From: Candidatus Freyarchaeum deiterrae
GTDB taxonomy: Archaea; Asgardarchaeota; Jordiarchaeia; Jordiarchaeales; Jordiarchaeaceae
Assembly: GCA_037305845.1 (NCBI GenBank)
Contig: CP147778.1
Location: 2,528,001 to 2,592,000 of the forward strand
Reading direction: 5' to 3'
DNA: 64,000 bases
This document shows positions 2,941-63,935 of the stretch, piece after piece. A program made the position numbers and the translations under genes. The notes beneath the pieces are model-generated. The model worked only from the letters and a program-made list of their open reading frames with translations, did not search any database and was not told the origin of the DNA. Every line of letters begins with the position of its first letter. The stretch's first letter is position 1.

Positions 2941-3222
2941 ATGCCAGAAGTTTATTGTCAGGTTTTAAACCGGAATGTTGATGGAGGTTATTGTGCCTTC
3001 ATTTGTGAACTTCCAGAAACCGAGAAAAAAATCTTTTACAACCCAGTCAGAGGAATATACGCCGAATGCGACTTTTGCGAGGACACCCCAAAACCGGAAC
3101 CAGTCCGTAAAACTATCTCCACAGTTATAAAGAAGTCTGAACTGGAAAATTCCGAAGATACGCTGAGAATTCCTCAATCAGTGATTCGCAAAGTAATCAC
3201 CGTTTTGGAGGGGGACAAATAA
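2941..3222 (+). CDS. Small Cys-rich (putative metal-binding) protein
   Basis: 93 aa with C..CxxxC..CxxC; GGTGA SD upstream; stop overlaps the radA start. Confidence 0.75.
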   Translation: MPEVYCQVLNRNVDGGYCAFICELPETEKKIFYNPVRGIYAECDFCEDTPKPEPVRKTISTVIKKSELENSEDTLRIPQSVIRKVITVLEGDK

Positions 3223-4289
3223 TGGATTTGAATAACATTAAGGGTGTGGGGCCCGAGAAATCCAAGAAGCTTATGAACGCGGGTTACAGCACGGTGGAGA
3301 GTATAGCCTTCTCCTCATCCAGAGATCTCTCCATGGATTCCGGTATACCCGAGGAAACAGCCAGACAAATCATTGCTTCCGCCAAGATAATTCTTCGCTC
3401 TAAAGAAAACACGAAAGGCGGAAAACTGGTGGAGATTCTCTCCGGTAAAGACGCTAAAAAAATTCTAAATAGTATGGAACATATTACCACCGGTCTGAAA
3501 GGACTCGACAAGATTCTAGGAGGAGGAGTAGAGACCTGTGCGGTTACTGAGTTCTACGGACCCGCAAAAGCTGGAAAAACACAAATCTGCCACCAACTCT
3601 GCGTCACAGTCCAGCTCCCCAAAGAAAAGGGCGGCTTAGAAGCCCCAGCCATATACATAGACACCGAGAGAACGGTGAAATACGACCACATCAAAAGCAT
3701 AGCCGAGAGATTCGGTCTAGATCCAGACTTGGCAAGCGACAACGTGTTCTACGCCTACGCCATGAACAGTGAAGCCCTCTTCGACATGGTTCACAAGAGT
3801 CTAGATGAAGTAGTTCAAAACCGAGGAATTAAACTCGTAATCGTGGACTGCCTAACCGGACACTTCCGTGCAGAATACTGCGGAAGGGAGAGCCTGCCCG
3901 CAAGGCAGCAGAAAATTAATAGAGTTATCCACGACCTTCTGAGAATCGCCGTCTCCCACGACCTAGCAGTGGTAGTAACAAACCAGGTTCACTCACAACC
4001 CGACCTGTACGGAAAGAGTGAAAATCCCATAGGGGGACACACCGTGGCTCACGGGGTCACTTTCAGGCTGGGATTGAGCACAAGGAAACACAACATGAGA
4101 ATAGCAACCGTGGTTGATGCTCCAGCGCTGCCCCCAGACGAGACTTACTTCGCGATAACCTCCAAGGGACTAATCGACATAACCGCCAAGAATCTGAGCT
4201 CCAAGGAACCTATAGAATTCTCTGATGGAAAAGAGATAGAAGAAAAAGAAGACGAGAAAGTGGAGGAAGAGGAAGCAGTCACGGATTAA
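3222..4289 (+). CDS. radA: RadA/Rad51-family recombinase, divergent full-length paralog
   Basis: N-terminal HhH (IKGVGPEKSKKL), Walker A GPAKAGKT, YIDTE, Walker B LVIVD, HFRAEY.GR..L..RQQK, TNQV, PIGGH. Confidence 0.92.
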   Translation: MDLNNIKGVGPEKSKKLMNAGYSTVESIAFSSSRDLSMDSGIPEETARQIIASAKIILRSKENTKGGKLVEILSGKDAKKILNSMEHITTGLKGLDKILGGGVETCAVTEFYGPAKAGKTQICHQLCVTVQLPKEKGGLEAPAIYIDTERTVKYDHIKSIAERFGLDPDLASDNVFYAYAMNSEALFDMVHKSLDEVVQNRGIKLVIVDCLTGHFRAEYCGRESLPARQQKINRVIHDLLRIAVSHDLAVVVTNQVHSQPDLYGKSENPIGGHTVAHGVTFRLGLSTRKHNMRIATVVDAPALPPDETYFAITSKGLIDITAKNLSSKEPIEFSDGKEIEEKEDEKVEEEEAVTD

Positions 4290-4307
4290 TTTAGCGAGGG
4301 ATGCACT

Positions 4308-6974
4308 ATGTGGAAACGGGGAGCAACTTTGGTTCTGGTTTCTCTCATACTTGTACTGATGATTTCAGTTCTTTTTGCAGCTGTTAGTTCATTCCCCGCT
4401 TTCCCCGTTCAACCTAGTGCAGCGGCTCAGTCCAGTTATGTTCCAAAATCTGTGGTTAGTGCTGCTTACCTCACCAATCAATCAACCGTCCAAAAATGGG
4501 AGAACTACTTCGCGAGTAATTCCAGCCAGACTAATCTGCAAAACGCAGTCGGGTTTCTTTCGGGCCTAGGAACCCGATATCCATCAAGTCCGACGTGCAA
4601 CAATTCGGCGGACTATATTTACACAACTCTTTCTTCATATGGTTACACACCCCTAAGAGATTACTTCACGGTTATGTGGCAGGGCAACCCGTACATTACC
4701 CAAAATATATACTGCATCAAGCCTTCTTCTTCGTCATCGGACATAATTCTTTTAGCCTGTAACTACGACTCAATAAGGGCTTCCAGAATAGGGACAACAA
4801 TTTACGATCTTCAGAACACTAGTTGTCCGGGTGCTGTAGACGACGCGACTGGTGTGGCGGTGCTTCTTGAAACCGCTAGATTAATCGCCAATGTAAGTCT
4901 TGATAAGACTCTGGTTTTCGTTTTTCTGAGTGGAGAGGAAGGAAACAGCACAACGGAACACTGGTTCGGCTCAGAACAACTGGTAAATCAAGGATACAGC
5001 CTATTCACCACACAGCTCTCAAACATAAAACGAGTAGTATACTTGGATACTCTCGGGGAGTCCCCGTACGGGGCACCGTATGAAAATATTACGCTTTTCT
5101 CAACTCTCGCAGTATTACCACAAAAAAGTTCCCTTATTGGTGCGGCGTCTGACCTAGGTATTAACGTCATCTCTGCGAATAATTCGAGGGTTTCATCAAT
5201 TTCAGATGCTCAAAACCAGTTTTGTACGGAATGGATGTTACAATCAGTCCTGCCCACGATAACTATCTCACAGAATGACTGGAATCTCGCCACGAGCAAA
5301 AGATTAACTGAGCAGGACACGGCCTCCATAGTTGATTACACCTTTGTTGATAACGTCACAGAGGTCGTTACAGGAGCACTGGTACGGGAGTTCTTCGTCC
5401 TTCCGCCAAGCTCTCCCAGCTACGTAGACGGTTGGAAGAAGCTCGCAAACCTAAACCAATACGGGGTTAACCTATTTGAGGTGGACTATGTAGAATACCT
5501 AGCCCACCCGAATTCCGATGTTGTAATAATAGGACCTAGGCTACACTTTACACCCTCCGAGCTCCAGCAGCTAATTGGTATCGGCAAGCCTCTCATCTGC
5601 ACAGGTGGAAATGGTGTAGAGTTGCTTAACAGTCTAGGTGCCCAGGTTACTGGCATTTCCTCTAATACTGATTATGTTTCTCTAACCAGAATGGATTTGT
5701 TCTATCATCCTGTATGGGAAAACGTGGAGGAGAACACCACGGTAACAATCAATCAGGGGCAGTCCACCCTCATTACCGCCGGAAACAACTTCTTCTCATT
5801 CTTAGGATTTAATGGAACTTGCTGGATGGGATTCTACTATGGTAACCAATCACTAAAGTATGTCTTCTATGTGGGAAGAGACAACCCTTCGAATCTAAGC
5901 GATAAAGGGAAACAAATTCTGAGCAACCTGATATTCTGGAGTGCTCAACAGCAGGAAAATGTTCTACAGATTCAGCCCACAAAAATTGTAGCTGGAGAAA
6001 ATACCAACCTCACCATGGCCATAAGGAGCGCTCTGAGCTGGAACGTCATACAGGCTGACACATTGAATCTAACCATCACCCAAAACGGGGGATTAGTATA
6101 CCAAGATTCCATTCCCACGTCGAACGGCTACTTTAGTGTTAATCTTGATCTAAACCTTGGAGAGTATATCTTTACGGTGTCAAATGGCACAGTTTCTGCC
6201 ACAAGGATAATACAGGTATTAATGCCGTTTATAGTTCAGGTTTATTCTTCTCCATTATTGGTTCAGAATGAGTATGTTCTATTGGTTCTAAGAATTGATA
6301 GTCTATCATCATCCCAGCAAAATCTCGGTGTATTTATCCCAGAACTTCAGGTGTTTAATCAGGTTAATCTACCCTCAAACCAATCGGTGACGGTCCTAGT
6401 TCCCGCGATTTATACTCCTTCATCAATTTACGACCAAGGCTTTCACCTATTCACGGTTCTGGTTCAAGGTTCTTACGGTAGTGGTTCGGTTTTCCCCATG
6501 TGGATATCTCTAGATGCGAGTAGTCTGATTCTCGGGTACATTCTACCCCTAATTGCTATTTTGGCAATCAGCTTCCTTACTTACAGAAAGATATACGTGG
6601 TTAAACTTCCCGAGAAGATAAAGCTTAGGGAGACTAGGAGGAGAAACAGGAGAAGCTACTTTAACACTTTTGTCTTAGACTCGGAAATAATTGGAGTACT
6701 AAGAGAACGCCTCAAACAGAAAGGATTCCGAGAGAAGGCAAAAAACCGCTTCTACAACTCCGAAATGATAATCGAAATTGAAAATAAAGGGGATAAATCA
6801 TCCATTAGAGTCTTCTCTTCAATCCCATTCTCATCTAAAAAAGATTTCTTCAAACTAACCGAACGAATCAAAATAAACAGGGTCACCATCGCTAAAAACC
6901 AAGAAGCAAAACCTGAACCGGAGAAGGGCACAATATCCAAATTCAAAGGAGGGCTTAAGGATGATAGGTATTGA
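4308..6974 (+). CDS. Membrane-anchored surface protein with M28 peptidase-like domain (probably inactive), beta-rich stalk, TM and cytoplasmic tail
   Basis: Signal peptide; M28 motifs ACNYDS, PGAVDDATG, SGEEG, YLD; many N-x-S/T sequons; TM LILGYILPLIAILAISFLTY. Confidence 0.85.
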   Translation: MWKRGATLVLVSLILVLMISVLFAAVSSFPAFPVQPSAAAQSSYVPKSVVSAAYLTNQSTVQKWENYFASNSSQTNLQNAVGFLSGLGTRYPSSPTCNNSADYIYTTLSSYGYTPLRDYFTVMWQGNPYITQNIYCIKPSSSSSDIILLACNYDSIRASRIGTTIYDLQNTSCPGAVDDATGVAVLLETARLIANVSLDKTLVFVFLSGEEGNSTTEHWFGSEQLVNQGYSLFTTQLSNIKRVVYLDTLGESPYGAPYENITLFSTLAVLPQKSSLIGAASDLGINVISANNSRVSSISDAQNQFCTEWMLQSVLPTITISQNDWNLATSKRLTEQDTASIVDYTFVDNVTEVVTGALVREFFVLPPSSPSYVDGWKKLANLNQYGVNLFEVDYVEYLAHPNSDVVIIGPRLHFTPSELQQLIGIGKPLICTGGNGVELLNSLGAQVTGISSNTDYVSLTRMDLFYHPVWENVEENTTVTINQGQSTLITAGNNFFSFLGFNGTCWMGFYYGNQSLKYVFYVGRDNPSNLSDKGKQILSNLIFWSAQQQENVLQIQPTKIVAGENTNLTMAIRSALSWNVIQADTLNLTITQNGGLVYQDSIPTSNGYFSVNLDLNLGEYIFTVSNGTVSATRIIQVLMPFIVQVYSSPLLVQNEYVLLVLRIDSLSSSQQNLGVFIPELQVFNQVNLPSNQSVTVLVPAIYTPSSIYDQGFHLFTVLVQGSYGSGSVFPMWISLDASSLILGYILPLIAILAISFLTYRKIYVVKLPEKIKLRETRRRNRRSYFNTFVLDSEIIGVLRERLKQKGFREKAKNRFYNSEMIIEIENKGDKSSIRVFSSIPFSSKKDFFKLTERIKINRVTIAKNQEAKPEPEKGTISKFKGGLKDDRY

Positions 6975-7413
6975 ACAATTACTAGGTTGGATGGTTAACT
7001 CATTAATTTACGATGGGATTATACTCTTCATCGCATTTTTCATCGTGTTTCTGAGTCTAAAAGTAGCCATAACATTTCTAAGAGCAAACGAATCCCAAAC
7101 CGTTCCCCTGATTCCACCAAAGCTACCAGTGTCGGAAAAAGCTAATCCCTACGTCCAGCTAGCTGAAGCCCTAGAGAAGGGCGACCAAGGAGCATTATTA
7201 TGGCTGATGAGCCAAAACACAACCAAGAGCAGGATTCAAAAAACGCTAAACTCAGCTTCGGTGGACTTGTTTTTGGGAATAGCTTCCCTGTTAACAGTTT
7301 CCAGTGCTTATATCAAGATTAACGCTCTACCAGTGTCGGACTGGATAGTAATCCTAATGATTATAGCAGCCCTCATTCTTGTGGGCGTCTCATACCGGAG
7401 GGCGAAAGGTTGA
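6961..7413 (+). CDS. Small membrane protein (about 3 TM)
   Basis: 150 aa with three hydrophobic segments; overlaps the upstream stop; GGAGGGG SD. Confidence 0.8.
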   Translation: MIGIEQLLGWMVNSLIYDGIILFIAFFIVFLSLKVAITFLRANESQTVPLIPPKLPVSEKANPYVQLAEALEKGDQGALLWLMSQNTTKSRIQKTLNSASVDLFLGIASLLTVSSAYIKINALPVSDWIVILMIIAALILVGVSYRRAKG

Positions 7414-7529: not shown

Positions 7530-8378
7530 GTGTCTGCTGAAAATGAAGAAACAGAAAAAGAAAAAGAAGAACCCAAGGAACCATATATCAAGTGGAAAGA
7601 TAGAAACGCCAAACTTTTCAGCCTCAAGAACGTAGCCAAGTTCATGGTTGTAGCAGTCGTCAGCCTACTATCCTACTTTGCTTCAACAGCATATCTCTCA
7701 TATCCGTACTGGATAATAACGACCGCTCTATGCACCTACATCTCGATGTGCTCAGTGAATTCCAAGTTTGCTTCGCCATTTCTTAGATTGCTTAGTCGCG
7801 GAAAGTGGCCTAACAAAGACAAGTTCTCACTGGTCGATCCGTTACAGGACATGACCTTCTTCTTCATGGGAGGCGAGGATTCCGTTCTAATAATGCGTGA
7901 TAGCTACAAGCTTGCCGCCTACGCTATGATGAAGGTGGAGGAAATCCCCCTGAGCATAAGAGGAAGCTTCAACTACTTCTTCCGAACACTCTATCTCCAA
8001 AAAATACCAGTAACATACTTCGTGGAAAGCAGCCCGGTCTCAGAGAGAACGGTAAGGTTCCTACCAAACCTTGAGGAAGACAGCCGCCGATCCATCGCTA
8101 AGAGGGACAAGTCTCGCAGAAAAACTTACCTCTGGGGAGGCGGAGGCATCTGGACAACACGCATAGTCCTCGGAACCAAAAAGGAGACAATAGCACCAGT
8201 ACGCCTCGACAAATCAATTGGAAAACTTGTCGAAGAGGTCAAACAGAACGCTTTCACACTAGCCACAGCGTTTGAAAACTCTTACCCCCACTGCAAAATC
8301 GAACCCCTATTAGGCGAATCCCTGCTACAGGCTACAAAGGCTATGCTAACTGGCGGAGGGGTGTCCAATTTTTTCTAA
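7530..8378 (+). CDS. Membrane protein (2 TM plus alpha/beta domain); N-terminal half of a frameshift fusion
   Basis: GGAGG SD and GTG start; ends in the slippery T_TTT_TTC then TAA. Confidence 0.8.
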   Translation: MSAENEETEKEKEEPKEPYIKWKDRNAKLFSLKNVAKFMVVAVVSLLSYFASTAYLSYPYWIITTALCTYISMCSVNSKFASPFLRLLSRGKWPNKDKFSLVDPLQDMTFFFMGGEDSVLIMRDSYKLAAYAMMKVEEIPLSIRGSFNYFFRTLYLQKIPVTYFVESSPVSERTVRFLPNLEEDSRRSIAKRDKSRRKTYLWGGGGIWTTRIVLGTKKETIAPVRLDKSIGKLVEEVKQNAFTLATAFENSYPHCKIEPLLGESLLQATKAMLTGGGVSNFF

Positions 8379-8402
8379 CCGGGTTGGAGTCGTCTCCAAC
8401 TT
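8369..8402 (+). other. -1 programmed ribosomal frameshift signal
   Basis: T TTT TTC (8369-8375), 7-nt spacer, perfect hairpin GTTGGAG-TCGT-CTCCAAC (8383-8400); the downstream ORF is in the -1 frame and open through the site. Confidence 0.75.
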
Positions 8403-9946
8403 TCGTGGACATAGCCACCTTCATGACCAAAGGCTTACCGGTCAAACCCGCCGCGGAATTCGTCAGCCCCTCAGTGGAATACGATTTTAAGCTGGGCAAG
8501 GTGCTTGAAACTGAGGTGTACAAGGAAGACGTAGACGTAGGACTAAAAATCGAACACCTAACGCGAGGAATCATGGTCGCTGGAGGAAGCCACAAGGAAC
8601 GCACCGCCACAAACCTAAGCATCATTTTCGAAGCTTCCAAATTTGCCTGGAACTATCTAATAGTGGACACCAAGAAAGAGTTCCGAAAACTGGTGAACAT
8701 GAACCCCGAAACAAGAGTGTACACCAGCAAAAGCATCTGCATAAACCCACTGGACCCCGAAGGCTCAAACGTTTCCGAGTACATTTCCCTGTTACTCAGA
8801 CTATTTCAGGTACTATGGGACCTCACCAACAGACAGAGTATCGGTCTGAACGAAGCCCTGAGAAGCATATACGAGAAACAGGACGGAGACGAAGCCCCCA
8901 CACTCGAGGACCTGAGAAATGCCCTACTTAATCAGAGCTCATCGAAGCTGCGGACACCCCAGGAGAGAGGCGAAACAGAGGAACTGATACGCGGCGTAAC
9001 GGGTCTGGTTCTCTCCGAAGAATCCCCCACAATAAACGGGCGCTCCACAGCACCCTTCGGAGAACTCACGACTAATCCCACAGTTATAGAAATTTCCAAA
9101 AAGGATCAGCTTTTCTCAAGCTTCTTCAAAGGACTAATGATAATCAAAGCCCTAGCCACGGAAAAAGGCAGATACTCCATATTTCTGGACGACGCAGAGG
9201 AGGTTTTCAAAAACGTAAGGTTCGGCTGGAAAACACAGCAAGTCTACTTCATGGAATCTCTAACCGCCTGGGTGGAAAGCCTCAAAGAAATGAAAGTGGG
9301 ATTACACATTTCAACAAGTCTACCACGATTAATATACGACCCCATCACCCCATCGATAGAAACACGAATATTCCATAAACTCGTTTCAAGCGATGACATA
9401 GAGGTAGGAGGAGATCTCATGGGACTGGATGAAAACGCCCCCGGAATACACTCCCTCAAGAGAGAACGACTCTACCAGAAAACCTACTTCAAATACCTGA
9501 AAGAGGGAGAAGCCATGTTCCACAGACCAGACCTACCCACAGGATTCCCCATAATCCTACAATACCCCGCAGGAGCAACCTCAAAGGCACCATCAGACCA
9601 AGAGATAAAAACCAGGATGGAAGAGCTCTACCCTCCACAGAACGTAAACCCGATGGAGAGTTTACCGTCCACGATACTCGAGAGAGACTTGAAAAACGAA
9701 ACTGAGAACGCCACAAAAATACTTAGTCTGCTCCACGAATACCCCCAACTATCACTAACAAATATTATACAGAGCCTAAAAACAGAAGTCGACTCGGAGA
9801 AGCTAAACTATCTAGTAGAGAAGCTCAAGGATCAGGAATACTTGAAGGAAACTCTGGAAATCTGGAAATCAAGAACCAAAAGAGTATACTCCCTTACGCT
9901 GAAGGGAGAACAGGCGCTAAAAGAATACACGGAATCCAAACGGTAA
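8384..9946 (+). CDS. HerA/VirB4/FtsK-like P-loop domain (degenerate Walker A) with C-terminal winged helix; probably made as an ~805-aa fusion with 7530-8375
   Basis: HLTRGIMVAGGSHKERT (P-loop position, no GKT), LIVDTKKEF, INPLDP, PTLEDL, IFLDDAE; C-terminal YSLTLKGEQAL winged helix. Confidence 0.8.
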   Translation: MESSPTFVDIATFMTKGLPVKPAAEFVSPSVEYDFKLGKVLETEVYKEDVDVGLKIEHLTRGIMVAGGSHKERTATNLSIIFEASKFAWNYLIVDTKKEFRKLVNMNPETRVYTSKSICINPLDPEGSNVSEYISLLLRLFQVLWDLTNRQSIGLNEALRSIYEKQDGDEAPTLEDLRNALLNQSSSKLRTPQERGETEELIRGVTGLVLSEESPTINGRSTAPFGELTTNPTVIEISKKDQLFSSFFKGLMIIKALATEKGRYSIFLDDAEEVFKNVRFGWKTQQVYFMESLTAWVESLKEMKVGLHISTSLPRLIYDPITPSIETRIFHKLVSSDDIEVGGDLMGLDENAPGIHSLKRERLYQKTYFKYLKEGEAMFHRPDLPTGFPIILQYPAGATSKAPSDQEIKTRMEELYPPQNVNPMESLPSTILERDLKNETENATKILSLLHEYPQLSLTNIIQSLKTEVDSEKLNYLVEKLKDQEYLKETLEIWKSRTKRVYSLTLKGEQALKEYTESKR

Positions 9947-12744: not shown

Positions 12745-15039
12745 TTAATTCTCTCCATCGTCCCACCCTTCCTCGTTTCCTCCTGTGCCAGATCCGTCGA
12801 GCATCCGATTATTAAGAAATTCGCTTCTGTTTTTCCTAAGCCGCGTGAACAATACTACGCTACCCAGCAATCCGAATCCGGTAACTGCCAGAACGCTAGG
12901 CAGAGTGAAGCCAGAGATGTTAGGGTCTAACAGAGAAAGCCCCGCCAATACGTTTAGTGAAGCACCCCCACCTCCTGAAGATGAAGATGTTACTCTGATT
13001 GAACTGCTTGTGGTAGCGATGGTGTAAGACTGGTTGAAGAACATCAGTATATTGTAATCTCCGGTGTATTGCGGCGTCCATTGGGTTTGGAAACAAGTCA
13101 GGTTACTGATAGTGTACATCCCTGAGAATACGGCGTTATTGTCGAGATCCGTTACCAGAAGAGTTACTGGGTCGTTAAGGTTAGGTGTGAAGCCGAGTGA
13201 ACTGAATTTCGCATTAATCTGGAGACTTCCTCCCAGTGTAATCTGTCCATTATTGGCATTGGTTTCAAGACCTGCTACAAGTTGAGAAGCTGAGAATTCC
13301 AAACCCGTGGTTACAGGGTCTAAGGTTGAGTTACCGGGGAACGTGAAGAATACGCTGTGAATTCCTCTAGTGCTTGGAGCCCACCCCAGAGAGAAAAGGC
13401 TGTCAATTCCCGTGTATATGGAGCAATTCACCATACGACCATCAGGACAGTAAATGGTTACATTTATACCAATGCTGCCCCCAAGAGGCTGTGAATTCAG
13501 AGTTAGGTTTCCCTCAAAGTTCAGGGTGTCCCCCACAGTTATACCGGAATTTGTACCGACAAGATTTACCGATAGCGCTGGTTTGCCTCTGACTGTTACC
13601 TGGGCGGCGGTCCAGTTCTTTGGCTGGCCGTCGTAATTCTTAATCCAGGCTACGATTTCGTATATTCCGATTCCCACGGGAACCCAGTTGTATGCAGCAT
13701 AACCCGAACTGTTGCTGACCTCGGAGTCCAAGAGTGTGTATAAATCAGGGTTGTTAGTGAAAGTTGCTCCTGGATAGGTTATCCGGTTTATTATGCTCAA
13801 GTAGACGACTAATCCTGGAGCGGGGTTACCCCCTGCTGTTACGCAGGCGTTTAGCAGTACCACGCCTCCGCTGAGGTATATGGTGCTGGGTGTGGCGTTG
13901 AATGCTGTTATCTTGTAATCGGTGGGTTGTACGGTGAACGATTCAAGGAAGAATAGTGTCCCATCCGTCACATTTATGGTGTAGCTGGGGCTGGGGATTG
14001 AAGGTATTTGAAATGAGGTGTAAACCGGTCCGCTGCTGCTTGTGACTACTTGGTCGGTGTGCACCGTGGTTTGGTTCCAGTCGATAACCTTCACATTGAG
14101 GTTTACTCCTCCGTAAAAGGTTAGATTTAGATTGTTTCTCGCGGCTATGCTTATGTTAGCTACTTCTGAGGCGTTGTATGAGTAATAATCTGGTTCTATT
14201 TGAATGCTGTAGGGGTTTTTATTCTTAAGCCAGTAGAGTATGTTCATCAGGGTTTGCAGGCAACTATATCCATTGGGGTCTTGGCTAATGGTTGTTATGT
14301 TTTGTAACGCCCAGTGTACCAAGTAGGGGTTTACCGAATAACTACTATAGATGCTCAAGAAGTACTCATTGAATTCTTCCCAGTCCATTGCCAGCGGAAT
14401 CAATTGTGTGGAGTTGGTTAGGGTTAGATTGTCATTGGATAGGGGTAGCTCGAAGTATCTTTGGGATACCTGCCCGTAGAGTTCCTGGGTGGTATAATTC
14501 ACTCGGTTGGGGTACTGGAATACTATGTGGTAGTGGGTGTCCCAGTTGTTGGGGCCGTATGTAATCTCAAGCCAGTGAATCGATGTGACTTTAGTGATTT
14601 TTAGAGGGGTTATCTGGGCTCCGAGATTGTTAAGAAACTCGTACCCGCCATCGCCCACAGCTAGTACTGGTTTACCGATTCCTGCTATGGTTTGAGATTC
14701 AGTCTGGTTCAGTCCTTTACAGGAAGTGTCCAAAATGAGAATATCAAAAGCACTGGCAATGGAAGAATTACTGACCAAGTTTTCTAAATAGACCTGTGTT
14801 AAGGTAAAGCCCTCTGCTTGGAGAGTGTTGTTCCAATCGTTGAAATAGTTGTTGCTACCGTTGGTGATAAAGAGGATGCTCGGCTGATTGGATTTAGAAT
14901 ATGCTGGGTTGTTATTGTTAACTCCTAGGGAAACATAGTTGAGAACAGTTGTTTGCGGTGATGCTGTTGTTAGTAAAGTAAGTTCAGTTAACGATAGTAG
15001 CGTTAAAATTAGAGCTATTATGAGTAATTTTTTCTTCAG
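12745..15039 (-). CDS. Large surface glycoprotein with Ig-like beta domains and C-terminal TM anchor; non-canonical start (CTG at 15039)
   Basis: The frame is open 87 codons upstream of the listed TTG (14778) and encodes the signal peptide KKKLLIIALILTLLSL. A GGAGAGG SD lies 8 nt before the CTG. The GIGKP..G..G.E.LN.LGAQ.T domain is shared with 4308-6974. Confidence 0.8.
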   Translation of the reverse strand: MKKKLLIIALILTLLSLTELTLLTTASPQTTVLNYVSLGVNNNNPAYSKSNQPSILFITNGSNNYFNDWNNTLQAEGFTLTQVYLENLVSNSSIASAFDILILDTSCKGLNQTESQTIAGIGKPVLAVGDGGYEFLNNLGAQITPLKITKVTSIHWLEITYGPNNWDTHYHIVFQYPNRVNYTTQELYGQVSQRYFELPLSNDNLTLTNSTQLIPLAMDWEEFNEYFLSIYSSYSVNPYLVHWALQNITTISQDPNGYSCLQTLMNILYWLKNKNPYSIQIEPDYYSYNASEVANISIAARNNLNLTFYGGVNLNVKVIDWNQTTVHTDQVVTSSSGPVYTSFQIPSIPSPSYTINVTDGTLFFLESFTVQPTDYKITAFNATPSTIYLSGGVVLLNACVTAGGNPAPGLVVYLSIINRITYPGATFTNNPDLYTLLDSEVSNSSGYAAYNWVPVGIGIYEIVAWIKNYDGQPKNWTAAQVTVRGKPALSVNLVGTNSGITVGDTLNFEGNLTLNSQPLGGSIGINVTIYCPDGRMVNCSIYTGIDSLFSLGWAPSTRGIHSVFFTFPGNSTLDPVTTGLEFSASQLVAGLETNANNGQITLGGSLQINAKFSSLGFTPNLNDPVTLLVTDLDNNAVFSGMYTISNLTCFQTQWTPQYTGDYNILMFFNQSYTIATTSSSIRVTSSSSGGGGASLNVLAGLSLLDPNISGFTLPSVLAVTGFGLLGSVVLFTRLRKNRSEFLNNRMLDGSGTGGNEEGWDDGEN

Positions 15040-31431: not shown

Positions 31432-32928
31432 TTACTCTGTTTCTTCATCGACCCAGGAGAATTTTTTTTGGAGGGTTTTGGGGTAGTAGTTTTTCCAATC
31501 GTAGTCTACTTTTTTACCCCATTCGTAGTACACTCTGGGATCAATGTAGCTTTTGAGCGAGGTTGTGAGGTTATAGTTTTTGGTTTCCTTCATGCTTTCG
31601 ATCTGAACCTCTAATTCCTTCACCTTTTCCAGAGATTTTTCAGTTTTCTTTTCTTTCAGTTTTATAAGGCGTTCCTTCTTCTTTTCCAGCGAGCTCTGGA
31701 AGCCTTTTGACACCTGCTTTTTATGGTTGCAGATTTCAGCGGCTTTGAGGTTAGCCACTCTGGCGGTGTTTTTCTTAACATAGTCTGGGTCATCCTTCGC
31801 GGTTTTAGAGCCGTATAGTTCGCTCTCTACCACTTGGGTAGCGTGATAAGTTCTGAAGACTTTGGCGCTCAACCCGGGCATAACCTCGTAAAGAAACTGG
31901 CTAACGTTACTCGACCTAACCCCCTCAAAAATTGCTGATTTCGCTTCCGAAATAAACTCCTGAAGATTTTTAATCACCTCGGGCGGAAGAGTAACCTCTT
32001 TTTCCCACCTCACCGAGTCTTTGCCCAGAAAATTGAATTTTGTTAACCCGTTTTCACCAATTTTGATGTGACTGGGCCTAAGTGTAGTGGCGCCCACAGT
32101 GTCCGCCTCGTCCTTATCCTTCTCATCACCCACACGAAGCTTCAAAGCGTCAATAAGGTAACACACGGTAGCTATCTTCCTTCTCTTAGGATCCTCCGAA
32201 ACCAAGTTTTCCTCTATATGCTCCCTAAGCTCTTCTATTTTGCTATCAAGTTCTACGGCTTTGTTGAACTTCTCGATTTCCCTTCTCTGCTTTACGTGTG
32301 AGGTGTCTGAAAGCCATACATGCTTTAGTTTTCCACGTAACTTGTCATCCCACTTCGCCACCCACATGTAATCCGGTTCCCACACAATTTCTTTCCAATT
32401 TCCGGAGGGTCTGGGTGCGTCGGGTGAAAGGTTTAGAACAACATCCTCAGGTCTCGGGCCTCTCTTCCATTTTCCTCTAAGGGGATGTTCCCCTCTACCC
32501 ATGAAAATGCTTGAAGGCTCAGCAATGTAATTTGCAATCTCCACTTTTTTTCCATCTACAGTAACATAACCATACTTCTCTCTGTTATTTTCACGTATTA
32601 CCTTGCGTTCTGCAGCGAGTTTCTTCTTCTCCTCCTTTAGCACATTGGCCTTCCTAAGCTTCTCCTCTTCCACGTACTTTACAATTTCAGAAAAATCAAA
32701 GTCCTCTCGAGAAACTTTCTCCAGACCTAAAGCTGCACTAAAGTCATTAAAGAAGTTTTTAACGAAGACTGGATCCTCCACGTAAACTGTGCCTAGCTTT
32801 TTGACCCACGCTACAGCCATCTCTTCTTGTTCTGGCGCCAGTTTAATCTTTGTTCCCTTATACGAGATGGAGAATCCCTTTGTCTCATACTTCGGAAACA
32901 GAATGCCATTATGGATTAACTGTTTCAC
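31432..32928 (-). CDS. DNA topoisomerase IB (eukaryote-like)
   Basis: HNGILFP, FMGRGEHPLRGKWK, LRVGDEK, FLGKDS, KVFRTY, ICNHK, SYIDPR: catalytic R-K-R-H-Y pentad present. Confidence 0.95.
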   Translation of the reverse strand: MKQLIHNGILFPKYETKGFSISYKGTKIKLAPEQEEMAVAWVKKLGTVYVEDPVFVKNFFNDFSAALGLEKVSREDFDFSEIVKYVEEEKLRKANVLKEEKKKLAAERKVIRENNREKYGYVTVDGKKVEIANYIAEPSSIFMGRGEHPLRGKWKRGPRPEDVVLNLSPDAPRPSGNWKEIVWEPDYMWVAKWDDKLRGKLKHVWLSDTSHVKQRREIEKFNKAVELDSKIEELREHIEENLVSEDPKRRKIATVCYLIDALKLRVGDEKDKDEADTVGATTLRPSHIKIGENGLTKFNFLGKDSVRWEKEVTLPPEVIKNLQEFISEAKSAIFEGVRSSNVSQFLYEVMPGLSAKVFRTYHATQVVESELYGSKTAKDDPDYVKKNTARVANLKAAEICNHKKQVSKGFQSSLEKKKERLIKLKEKKTEKSLEKVKELEVQIESMKETKNYNLTTSLKSYIDPRVYYEWGKKVDYDWKNYYPKTLQKKFSWVDEETE

Positions 32929-56011: not shown

Positions 56012-57652
56012 ATGCAGCTAAAAAATACTAGTATCATACTGGTAGCCTTCGGAATAACGGCTGCTGTTTCTCTTTTCTGGAACTGGCCCTTCAAAGTCGC
56101 CGAAATAGGTGGAGGACCATCAGTACTCATGTACCTCGCCCTACTCCTGGTAGTAGGAATACCCGTAGTCCTAGTCGAACTAGCCCTCGGCTCCTGGTCC
56201 AAGACCAGCTTCCCCAAATCCCTCAAAATGATACACTCCAAACTCGAATTCTTCGGATGGTTCGCAGCCGTAAACACCTTCTGGCTACTAATAGGAATAT
56301 GCGCAATCCTCAGCTGGGCCGCAAGCTTCGCCATCTACTCACTAAGCCCACTCTACCCCCTATCCAACTGGCTCTACCCCCTAACCGGAGCCTTCGACTT
56401 CACAAACTACTTCTTCAACTACGCAGACTCCCTCTACCCACTCATCGGACTAGCAATAATATGGAGCACAATCTTCCTCATCCTAGTAAGCACCAAGTGG
56501 GGACCAAGAATCAGAAGCATCGCCATCAAAACCGTGTTCCCCACACTAACAATCGTCCTAGCAATCATACTCGCCCTAATCATATTCTTCGCGGGCGGCG
56601 TAGACCCCGGAATAAACTTCTACCTCGGCTTCAACCCCAGCGTCTTCCTAAACGGCTCATCCTGGCGCACAATCATAACCATACTCTTCTTCAACCTCGG
56701 AGCCGGACTAGGCGTCCTCAGCTTCTACACCAGCAAAAACCCCGCACAAAACAAACTAACCACACTCTCAATAATCGCACCACTACTAGGAACCGCACTA
56801 ATCTTCATAGGCGGACTGGTCTTCTTCTCCATGAGCGGCGCAAGCGGACTCACCAACACGTTCAACACCACGAACATACTCAACCCCAGCAGCCTCCTCC
56901 CAATGGGAACCCTAGGCTACCCCGCAGCACCATTCATAGGATGGCAAGCAGGCTTCGCAACCATAACACGCACCATGGGACCCACCATCGGCAAAACCCT
57001 AGCCTTCCTCTTCTACACACTCACCCTCATCGCCGGAACCCTAGGACTAACCCTCATAATAGAACCCATAAAAGAAACAATAAAAACCAAATTCAACCTA
57101 AGCCCACGAAAACTACTAGCAGCAATCGTAACAATAGGATTCCTAGCCAGCATACCCCTAACACTAACATCAACAACACCCCTAGGCTACAACCTAACAA
57201 CACTATCCAACTGGTGGGTAGAAGGCTTCGGACTAACCATAGTAATAATCGTAGAGCTAATCGCAGCAGGATGGATATGGGGAGCAGACAACACCGTAGG
57301 ATACATAAACAACAACACCCGAATCAAAATCCCAAAATGGTTCAAATGGATAATCAAAATAGTAGCACCCGCAGTCGCAATAATCGCACTAGCAGCAGCA
57401 GTATACGACACAATCAAAGGATACGTACTCAACAACTGGGGATACCTAACACCACTAATAACATCATGGCAAACACTAGCACCATGGTACACCGACCCCA
57501 ACTTCGTATTCCTACTCCTAGTTGCAGTATGGCTCGCAAGCAACCTCATCATAGCCGCCATCCTAACAAGAAGAAAACCCAAAGAAGAAGAAAAAGAAGA
57601 AAAAGGCGAACCGAAGAAAAAAGAGAAACGGAGCAAAGAAAAAAATGCTTGA
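56012..57652 (+). CDS. Neurotransmitter:sodium symporter (NSS/LeuT) family transporter, divergent
   Basis: About 12 TM; WPF..GGG..Y..GIP..ELALG; TM1 motif degenerate. Confidence 0.8.
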   Translation: MQLKNTSIILVAFGITAAVSLFWNWPFKVAEIGGGPSVLMYLALLLVVGIPVVLVELALGSWSKTSFPKSLKMIHSKLEFFGWFAAVNTFWLLIGICAILSWAASFAIYSLSPLYPLSNWLYPLTGAFDFTNYFFNYADSLYPLIGLAIIWSTIFLILVSTKWGPRIRSIAIKTVFPTLTIVLAIILALIIFFAGGVDPGINFYLGFNPSVFLNGSSWRTIITILFFNLGAGLGVLSFYTSKNPAQNKLTTLSIIAPLLGTALIFIGGLVFFSMSGASGLTNTFNTTNILNPSSLLPMGTLGYPAAPFIGWQAGFATITRTMGPTIGKTLAFLFYTLTLIAGTLGLTLIIEPIKETIKTKFNLSPRKLLAAIVTIGFLASIPLTLTSTTPLGYNLTTLSNWWVEGFGLTIVIIVELIAAGWIWGADNTVGYINNNTRIKIPKWFKWIIKIVAPAVAIIALAAAVYDTIKGYVLNNWGYLTPLITSWQTLAPWYTDPNFVFLLLVAVWLASNLIIAAILTRRKPKEEEKEEKGEPKKKEKRSKEKNA

Positions 57653-57863
57653 AAGAATATACTGGGCACTAGAAAAATACGACAACCTAGGAGCCTGGAT
57701 AATAATCTGCCTATTCACAGTCATAGGAGCACTAACAGCAGCCGCACTCAGAATACTGGGATACCTCAACCCCTTCACTATAATAACCATAGTAGCAGTA
57801 GTAACAGTAATACCGGGAATAATCCTCGCAGTCAAGTACCTAGACTACATAAAAGGAAACTAG
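57645..57863 (+). CDS. Small 2-TM protein coupled to the NSS gene
   Basis: 72 aa, overlaps the upstream stop. Confidence 0.65.
   Translation: MLERIYWALEKYDNLGAWIIICLFTVIGALTAAALRILGYLNPFTIITIVAVVTVIPGIILAVKYLDYIKGN

Positions 57864-62987: not shown

Positions 62988-63935
<948 letters not shown>

Follow-up and report, generated by a model that had tools for sequence, protein, structure and literature searches.

The locus analyzed here raises the question of whether two adjoining open reading frames, ORF A and ORF B, encode separate proteins or form a single gene whose reading frame changes partway. It lies in a 64,000-nt stretch of Candidatus Freyarchaeum deiterrae DNA, referred to below as the window. 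The single-contig genome comprises 3,576,204 bp at 40.7% GC and has been reported as complete (3.58 Mbp), with curation from Illumina reads and a long-read check of its overall topology (PMC11291895). Database annotation lists a 281-307-aa hypothetical protein and a second ORF with arbitrary starts. A first-pass annotation proposed programmed -1 ribosomal frameshifting, and our comparative and computational analysis strongly supports this reading through a conserved U6N-stop arrangement, natural controls and a match in register with fused orthologues. We conclude that ORF A and ORF B very probably constitute one gene expressed via programmed -1 ribosomal frameshifting, with slippage itself still unobserved.

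ORF A (7530..8378, on the plus strand, as are all window features below unless stated) starts with GTG, ends with TAA and encodes 282 aa (32 kDa). Its 3' end reads AAT TTT TTC TAA. The slippery heptamer U UUU UUC, encoding Phe-Phe in the 0 frame, occupies 8369..8375 inside the ORF overlap, where the first-pass annotation had placed it, and the 0-frame stop TAA (8376..8378) abuts its 3' end; the -1 frame reads CTA (Leu) at this point. The next ORF had been described as lying exactly in the -1 frame and open across the site, which proved correct: the -1 frame contains no stop from 8276 to 9946, and the first ATG, GTG or TTG there is TTG 8384. Read post-shift, ORF B spans 8375..9946 (523 aa), and tandem slippage at the heptamer would yield a predicted trans-frame protein of 805 aa and 92 kDa. 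The product sizes originally put forward, 282 aa and about 805 aa, match our translations. The predicted A-B junction would be covered by the 31-residue tryptic peptide AMLTGGGVSNFFLTGLESSPTFVDIATFMTK, and the standard-termination product of ORF A by the 12-residue C-terminal peptide AMLTGGGVSNFF. An SD-like element, GGAGGGGTG (8355..8363), ends 5 nt 5' of the heptamer, with its GGAGG core ending 9 nt before it. This element pairs with the anti-SD at -11.5 kcal/mol and doubles as codons for conserved Gly residues. It is a possible 5' stimulator, a role that has not been shown, and it is weak or absent in the Hermodarchaeia loci.

The site is followed by a putative stimulatory stem-loop at 8381..8402, consisting of 9 bp (7 Watson-Crick and 2 G-U) and a 4-nt loop, in agreement with the 7-bp stem plus two G-U pairs first noted 7 nt downstream. 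The core stem (8383-8389/8394-8400, loop TCGT) starts 7 nt past the heptamer, and the G-U-extended stem starts 5 nt past it. The 48 nt after the heptamer are predicted to fold at -16.3 kcal/mol (not probed), the most stable of 122 folding windows in ORF B (p=0.014 vs. synonymous shuffles). No Rfam match was found in the 64-kb window. Genome-wide, a long -1 ORF running across a stop occurs in 145 pairs, and in 14 of them a slippery heptamer lies in the overlap. Among these 14, the 3' fold is most stable at the present site, the next reaching -9.6 kcal/mol (a gap of 6.7 kcal/mol), and the heptamer stands directly before the stop in two, this site being one. The other long pair with this placement (G000 C1:1532453-1533361, plus strand) carries G GGA AAA, a 307-aa -1 ORF and a weak 3' fold (-5.7).

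A homopolymer indel, which the first-pass annotation had asked to exclude, finds no support, as independent contigs carry T6 and not T7. The site is crossed without any indel by contigs of three DNA runs, one of which may be the source of the genome while the other two come from other samples; the check used contigs rather than raw reads, so rare variants would escape it. The runs holding this DNA are wetland and freshwater-sediment metagenomes. The T6 run is also present in 12 other Freyarchaeia loci, ORF A is single copy, and the genome contains no second, fused copy of the gene. We regard the sequence at the site and its reality as established. The sole RNA contig at the locus covers 8805-9072 (268 nt, inside ORF B) and shows neither the junction nor an expression level, and no peptide, ribosome-profiling or RNA read was found across the site.

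At 24 loci (23 distinct) from five Asgard families and unassigned assemblies, a U6N sequence abuts the stop and ORF B continues in the -1 frame; all U6N-stop sites that we found lie in Asgard genomes or in assemblies without assignment. Each of the other five genomes of the genus shares xAT TTT TTC-stop with a -1 ORF B, as do three metagenome contigs and a further four assemblies, and all 13 protein clusters close to ORF A (13/13) end in [NHY]FF. At about 30% protein identity, the arrangement recurs in f2 (L009), Hermodarchaeia f12 (L011, L051, L065), f28 (L066) and f26 (L067). Five unassigned assemblies (L110-L113, L115) provided further cases; these were selected by a protein ending in FF, with codons and hairpins unknown beforehand. 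Across the 24 loci, the run is T6C in 18, T7 in five and T6A in one, with a T8 homopolymer at five loci, and the stop is TAA in 18 and TGA in six. The codon 5' of the run ends in T at every locus (24/24), although the residue it specifies is variously H, A, N, R, Y or P. Given local codon usage, NNT TTT would arise by chance with a probability of 0.01 to 0.37 per locus; because the loci share ancestry and are not independent, the product of these values overstates the case. A single-protein scan of genome contigs matched only Hermodarchaeia, and the database names of ORF A homologues are Freyarchaeota/Jordarchaeum.

Conservation of the 3' structure is more uneven. The 3' region folds at -12 kcal/mol or lower at 18 of the 24 loci, and hairpins of unrelated sequence occupy the same place in f12, f26 and f28, bringing the families with a hairpin to four. 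The hairpin is the most stable 48-nt ORF B segment in L001, L003, L011, L051, L065, L066 and L067 (p 0.002-0.028, synonymous shuffles), and those of the five unassigned assemblies reach p 0.002-0.036. Within the f26/f28-like clade, pairing is kept in 85% of cells, and compensatory changes on both sides affect 6 of 16 pairs; no shuffle (0/500) paired as highly, and the value lay above all slid controls. This structure was derived from the same sequences on which it was tested, which favours it. Freyarchaeia alone showed no significant covariation (300/500 shuffles as high), and RNAalifold left only a 5-bp core of their alignment; on these two grounds, we did not count that alignment in support of the hairpin. 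In the Freyarchaeia subclade L004-L007 and L032, the hairpin is down to about 5 bp and is no better than synonymous shuffles, and those of L031, L034 and L009 are likewise no better than shuffles. Of the anticipated conservation of heptamer and hairpin, the heptamer has held, whereas the hairpin differs in its exact form between lineages and is weak in one subclade. On these sequence comparisons, the signal is shown to be conserved, under selection, beyond what the protein constraint accounts for.

We also examined whether ORF B could start independently. The first-pass annotation had stated that its TTG lacks an SD, and the anti-SD pairing of TTG 8384 is indeed only 0.2 kcal/mol; GTG 8405 and ATG 8423 reach -2.9 and -3.0 kcal/mol, respectively. 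The five upstream operon genes pair at -8.7 to -11.3 kcal/mol, and ORF A is preceded by a strong SD. The position of TTG 8384 is CTG or GCG in relatives, and a start there would drop the junction motif shared with fused orthologues. In the Hermodarchaeia loci, the first canonical start lies 116-146 nt past the stop. Given the missing SD, the change of TTG in relatives and two Hermodarchaeia loci (L011 and L051) without a canonical start until 146 nt, independent initiation of ORF B is unlikely, and the refutation once envisaged on this ground is not upheld.

Fused and independently started orthologues without the signal serve as natural controls. Split relatives with their own start codon possess neither the heptamer nor an unusual hairpin: L008 uses an SD and ATG, L012 has GTGATGA, and L013 and L030 keep the same frame with a stop, an SD and a start. 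Many relatives are in-frame fusions, 750-1000 aa long (families f6, f7, f10, f13, f27 and f33), and these lack the signal; a shared-word search, which is weak evidence, did not find any longer relatives of ORF A, and the fused relatives were later found by profile. Among 25 loci checked that are fused or probably fused, a T6 run persists at the junction in one (L069, a neighbour of L066), in a non-slippery frame. The fused orthologues share the junction motif F-[YF]-x-[TS]-G-x-E (e.g., S-F-Y-A-T-G-E-E), and the shifted product would read N-F-F-L-T-G-L-E, which is demonstrably in gapless register with it. In a model of a fused orthologue, this junction folds as a short strand and a helix lying between the two modules (pLDDT 55-66 there). 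The reading would have been refuted had close orthologues all been in-frame with no conserved signal, yet all close ones keep the split and the heptamer. A mirror-image signal in the fused orthologues, shifting -1 into a stop as in dnaX, was sought and not found.

The module B tree implies about four transitions for the frameshift state, whose members are scattered among fused and split forms, and a single clade of frameshift-bearing proteins was rejected (p-AU 0.012). The tree is unrooted and cannot separate one old origin with losses from repeated gains. A single base in the Phe-Phe codons suffices to switch between states. Because both the heptamer and its position are the same throughout, a single old origin followed by reversions would be the simpler reading, which the tree does not prove.

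Translational coupling would produce two proteins and no fusion, through termination at the stop and re-initiation on the overlapping -1 codon (CTA/CTG/TTG/ATG), aided by the SD-like element. Overlapping starts exist in relatives (ATGA in L009, GTGATGA in L012), the SD-like element lies 11-15 nt before CTA, and the split forms show that B is viable without a covalent anchor. For L009 and L012 themselves, re-initiation is likely; at L009, the ATGA overlap and an SD mean that re-initiation alone could explain the arrangement. However, the overlapping codon is CTA at 15 and TTA at 3 of the 24 loci, neither being a table 11 start, and coupling leaves the T before TTT under six different residues unexplained. 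Moreover, the truly coupled relatives have lost both heptamer and hairpin. A strong hairpin over a start codon impedes initiation, and such a hairpin would lie over the start here. We consider coupling quite unlikely at the Freyarchaeum site.

Slippage of RNA polymerase, inserting an extra U in the T6-T8 run so that the mRNA is then read normally, would suit a homopolymer site with T8 at five loci; its product would be identical, and protein-level evidence cannot discriminate it from ribosomal slippage. Transcriptional realignment usually takes runs of 8-9 or more, and T6 is short for it. The run is also phased exactly as X XXY YYZ, and the structure 3-7 nt downstream would still be untranscribed when the polymerase slipped, yet lies at the ribosome entry tunnel. 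We give this possibility very little weight. That one more T would create an in-frame gene, as in many Asgard genomes, might suggest an assembly error at the homopolymer or a pseudogene arising by a recent inactivating one-base deletion. This is hardly tenable against zero indels in the three runs, the same split at 24 loci in five families and an ORF B that is intact and 75-81% identical across the genus. Archaeal transcription terminators are U-rich, and the U-run could in principle be mainly a terminator lowering ORF B expression, its frame relation being incidental. That idea, to which we attach almost no credence, does not explain why the -1 phase is fixed, why a 3' hairpin follows, why the register matches or why B has no start.

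ORF A comprises a hydrophobic N-terminal segment (about residues 28-75) and an alpha/beta module. It has no Pfam match and no PDB sequence match, its Atlas matches are all under 0.9, and no homology was found between modules A and B. Going by the models, the alpha/beta module may resemble the VirB4 N-terminal domain: the fused-orthologue model aligns to TrwK 7o42 over residues 97-711 with Z 17.8 but an rmsd of 17.3, and the N-terminal domain was not searched separately. The module B model (pLDDT 84) has VirB4 4ag5 and HerA 4d2i as its best structural matches, with a Foldseek E of 3.7e-12 against 4ag5; for the fused-orthologue model, the match to 4ag5 gives Z 28.5 and an rmsd of 3.2 over 328. 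The Walker A of module B, GGSHKERT (8582..8605), is degenerate and does not meet the expected GxxxxGK[ST], and GK[ST] is absent from Walker A in every family member (0/39). Because this holds in 39 of 39 members, module B is, as far as its sequence can tell, a pseudo-ATPase that retains the VirB4/HerA fold only and would work as such, if at all. A C-terminal winged helix of MarR/PadR type (9719..9934) has a weak Pfam match (HTH_34, E=0.027) and, in the fused-orthologue model, matches MarR/PadR folds at Z about 12.9. Of the first-pass description as a TM-ATPase-like-wHTH fusion, the VirB4/HerA fold is borne out by the models, and the ATPase is not, the Walker A lysine being absent.

Other members of the family combine the modules differently. 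Family f9, probably Lokiarchaeia (not verified), and many database proteins of 1230-1340 aa place two A modules before one B (A-A-B). Such proteins include L023, L025 and P0059-P0152, and G017 encodes three such genes. G155 encodes a fusion plus an extra free A gene, and no second free-A gene was found in five genomes with a 1:1 fusion. A 452-aa open frame, L027 (G050), joins module A straight to the winged helix without the pseudo-ATPase, and L114:1385-3040 encodes a 253-aa free A gene followed by a gene with an A-like N-terminus (WFW motif) and no slippery site. A two-copy model of A residues 85-282 scored 0.55, compared with 0.00 for the best control. Solved homodimers attained this mark in 20 of 30 cases, single chains in 1 of 23. 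The dimer runs showed contact agreement of at least 69% and pLDDT of at least 63. The dimer score may reflect likeness to solved VirB4 dimers.

The gene is preceded by a run of upstream genes (2941..7413) whose order is the same in other Freyarchaeia loci. The run begins with a 93-aa Cys protein and continues with a RadA paralogue (3222-4289), an 888-aa M28-like membrane protein (4308-6974) and a 150-aa membrane protein (6961-7413). Just before the window, the cluster extends into a divergent run on the minus strand (G000 C1:2521242-2528033) of Hel308-like (736-aa open frame), RadB-like, membrane and FEN1-like genes; the Hel308-like, RadB-like and FEN1-like identities were read by eye from translations and by likeness to annotated neighbours elsewhere. 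In most long loci, RadA, Hel308-like, FEN1-like or XPD-like genes lie near the gene, and several unannotated membrane proteins are among the neighbours; comparable neighbourhoods are seen again across the phylum. Fold and context lead us to infer a role in membrane DNA handling. No active ATPase partner was identified, and the other HerA-like genes of the genome sit elsewhere.

Several other features of the window were recorded. By BLAST, a 677-aa membrane protein (12745-14778, minus strand) groups with the operon's 888-aa M28-like protein, and a 498-aa eukaryote-type topoisomerase IB with all three Pfam domains is encoded at 31432-32928 (minus strand). A 546-aa multi-pass membrane protein (56012-57672) is accompanied in another frame by a 471-aa shadow ORF, which looks non-coding and has no Pfam match. 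A perfect (AAC)104 repeat at 63286-63598 gives a run of about 100 Gln in a 315-aa ORF (62988-63935); with the reads unchecked, this may be either a genuine poly-Q tract or an artefact of gap filling during assembly.

Returning to frameshifting, we infer slippage by the ribosome, its rate and its purpose from the evidence above. For most ribosomes, translation would end at UAA 8376, yielding the free 282-aa membrane module A. In a fraction of cases, ribosomes would stall while two tRNA-Phe occupy UUU UUC, with the hairpin 5-7 nt further on holding them in place and slow release at the adjoining stop possibly contributing. These ribosomes would slip one base to UUU UUU and continue on CUA (Leu), giving an 805-aa product made of the membrane module, the VirB4/HerA-fold pseudo-ATPase and the winged helix. 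By inference again, the long form probably has no catalytic activity and acts as a ring or scaffold subunit in a membrane system that handles DNA and is linked to recombination.

The likeliest purpose, at roughly even odds, is that surplus free A pairs with the A module of the long form, one gene thereby supplying what others encode as A-A-B. Surplus A is not needed in every lineage, as the five 1:1-fusion genomes show no second A, and the shift may only lower the amount of B. The fixed subunit stoichiometry is plausible in view of the A-A-B fusions and the predicted A dimer, but remains unproven. A broader hypothesis, which we offer tentatively and rate somewhat short of even, is that the site is ancient, older than several Asgard classes, and sets the ratio of free A to anchored pseudo-ATPase in an undescribed DNA-transfer and recombination machine, with four encodings swapped during evolution: frameshift, 1:1 fusion, A-A-B fusion and two genes.

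The proposed recoding can be compared with several known systems. The HIV-1 gag-pol slippery site is U UUU UUA. Like the ratio-setting -1 frameshifts of E. coli dnaX, the phage tail chaperones G/GT and HIV-1 gag-pol, the Freyarchaeum site combines X XXY YYZ, a 3' stimulator at 5-9 nt, a possible 5' SD-like element and products sharing an N-terminus (PMC5009743, PMC8211752), and the canonical -1 site features as reviewed match this signal (PMC8211752). It differs from these three in host domain and gene, and in a stop that abuts the heptamer at every locus. In architecture, the product resembles CedD/CedB of the crenarchaeal Ced system for DNA import and VirB4, with the order TM, N-terminal domain and HerA/VirB4-like domain (CedD architecture, PMC11868833); the likeness extends to the fold match with VirB4 and to the DNA repair and recombination neighbours. 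It departs from CedD and VirB4 in that the Walker A lysine is missing, a winged helix is added at the C-terminus and the junction is, on our reading, recoded; the Ced paper is silent on frameshifting (PMC11868833).

Among archaeal cellular genes, -1 frameshifting has been demonstrated only for fucA1 of Saccharolobus (Sulfolobus) solfataricus, at 5% in E. coli and about 10% in vitro with S. solfataricus ribosomes, and this split is confined to strains P2 and 98/2 (PMC1616953; PMC8211752). A 2021 review left open whether archaeal genes beyond fucA1 use it (PMC8211752). Our literature search, which mostly did not cover subscription journals, turned up no article describing ribosomal frameshifting in a cellular gene of Asgard archaea. 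Predicted cases comprise haloarchaeal virus tail genes (PMC5009743, PMC8211752) and chlD (Mg/Co-chelatase), which is frameshifted in bacteria and, by prediction, in Methanocaldococcus/Methanococcus (PMC5009743, PMC9227772). The first-pass statement that few archaeal cases are documented therefore stands for fucA1 as the demonstrated one, and needs chlD added as a predicted conserved precedent; for the same reason, we dropped the claim of a first conserved archaeal cellular frameshift.

The present candidate is kept over five Asgard families, and recognizing it corrects the annotation from a separate hypothetical protein and a second ORF to one gene, very probably recoded. Because of this conservation, the U6 heptamer abutting the stop and the natural controls, the question is directly testable with a short cassette. 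If true, the site would provide a natural reporter of how the reading frame is controlled in the closest archaeal lineage to eukaryotes. Like fucA1, it is an archaeal chromosomal gene split by -1, with a slippery heptamer, a 3' stem-loop and full-length relatives. The fucA1 heptamer is A AAA AAU and demonstrated, whereas here U UUU UUC abuts the stop, recurs in five families at about 30% identity and is untested. Like chlD, which yields a short and a long subunit of one complex, it is a conserved -1 site in a cellular gene. Unlike chlD, whose heptamer A AAA AAR also occurs in bacteria and links chelatase subunits, it consists of U6N-stop in a membrane pseudo-ATPase. The site is thus distinct from the known archaeal cases in heptamer class, abutting stop, host lineage and gene.
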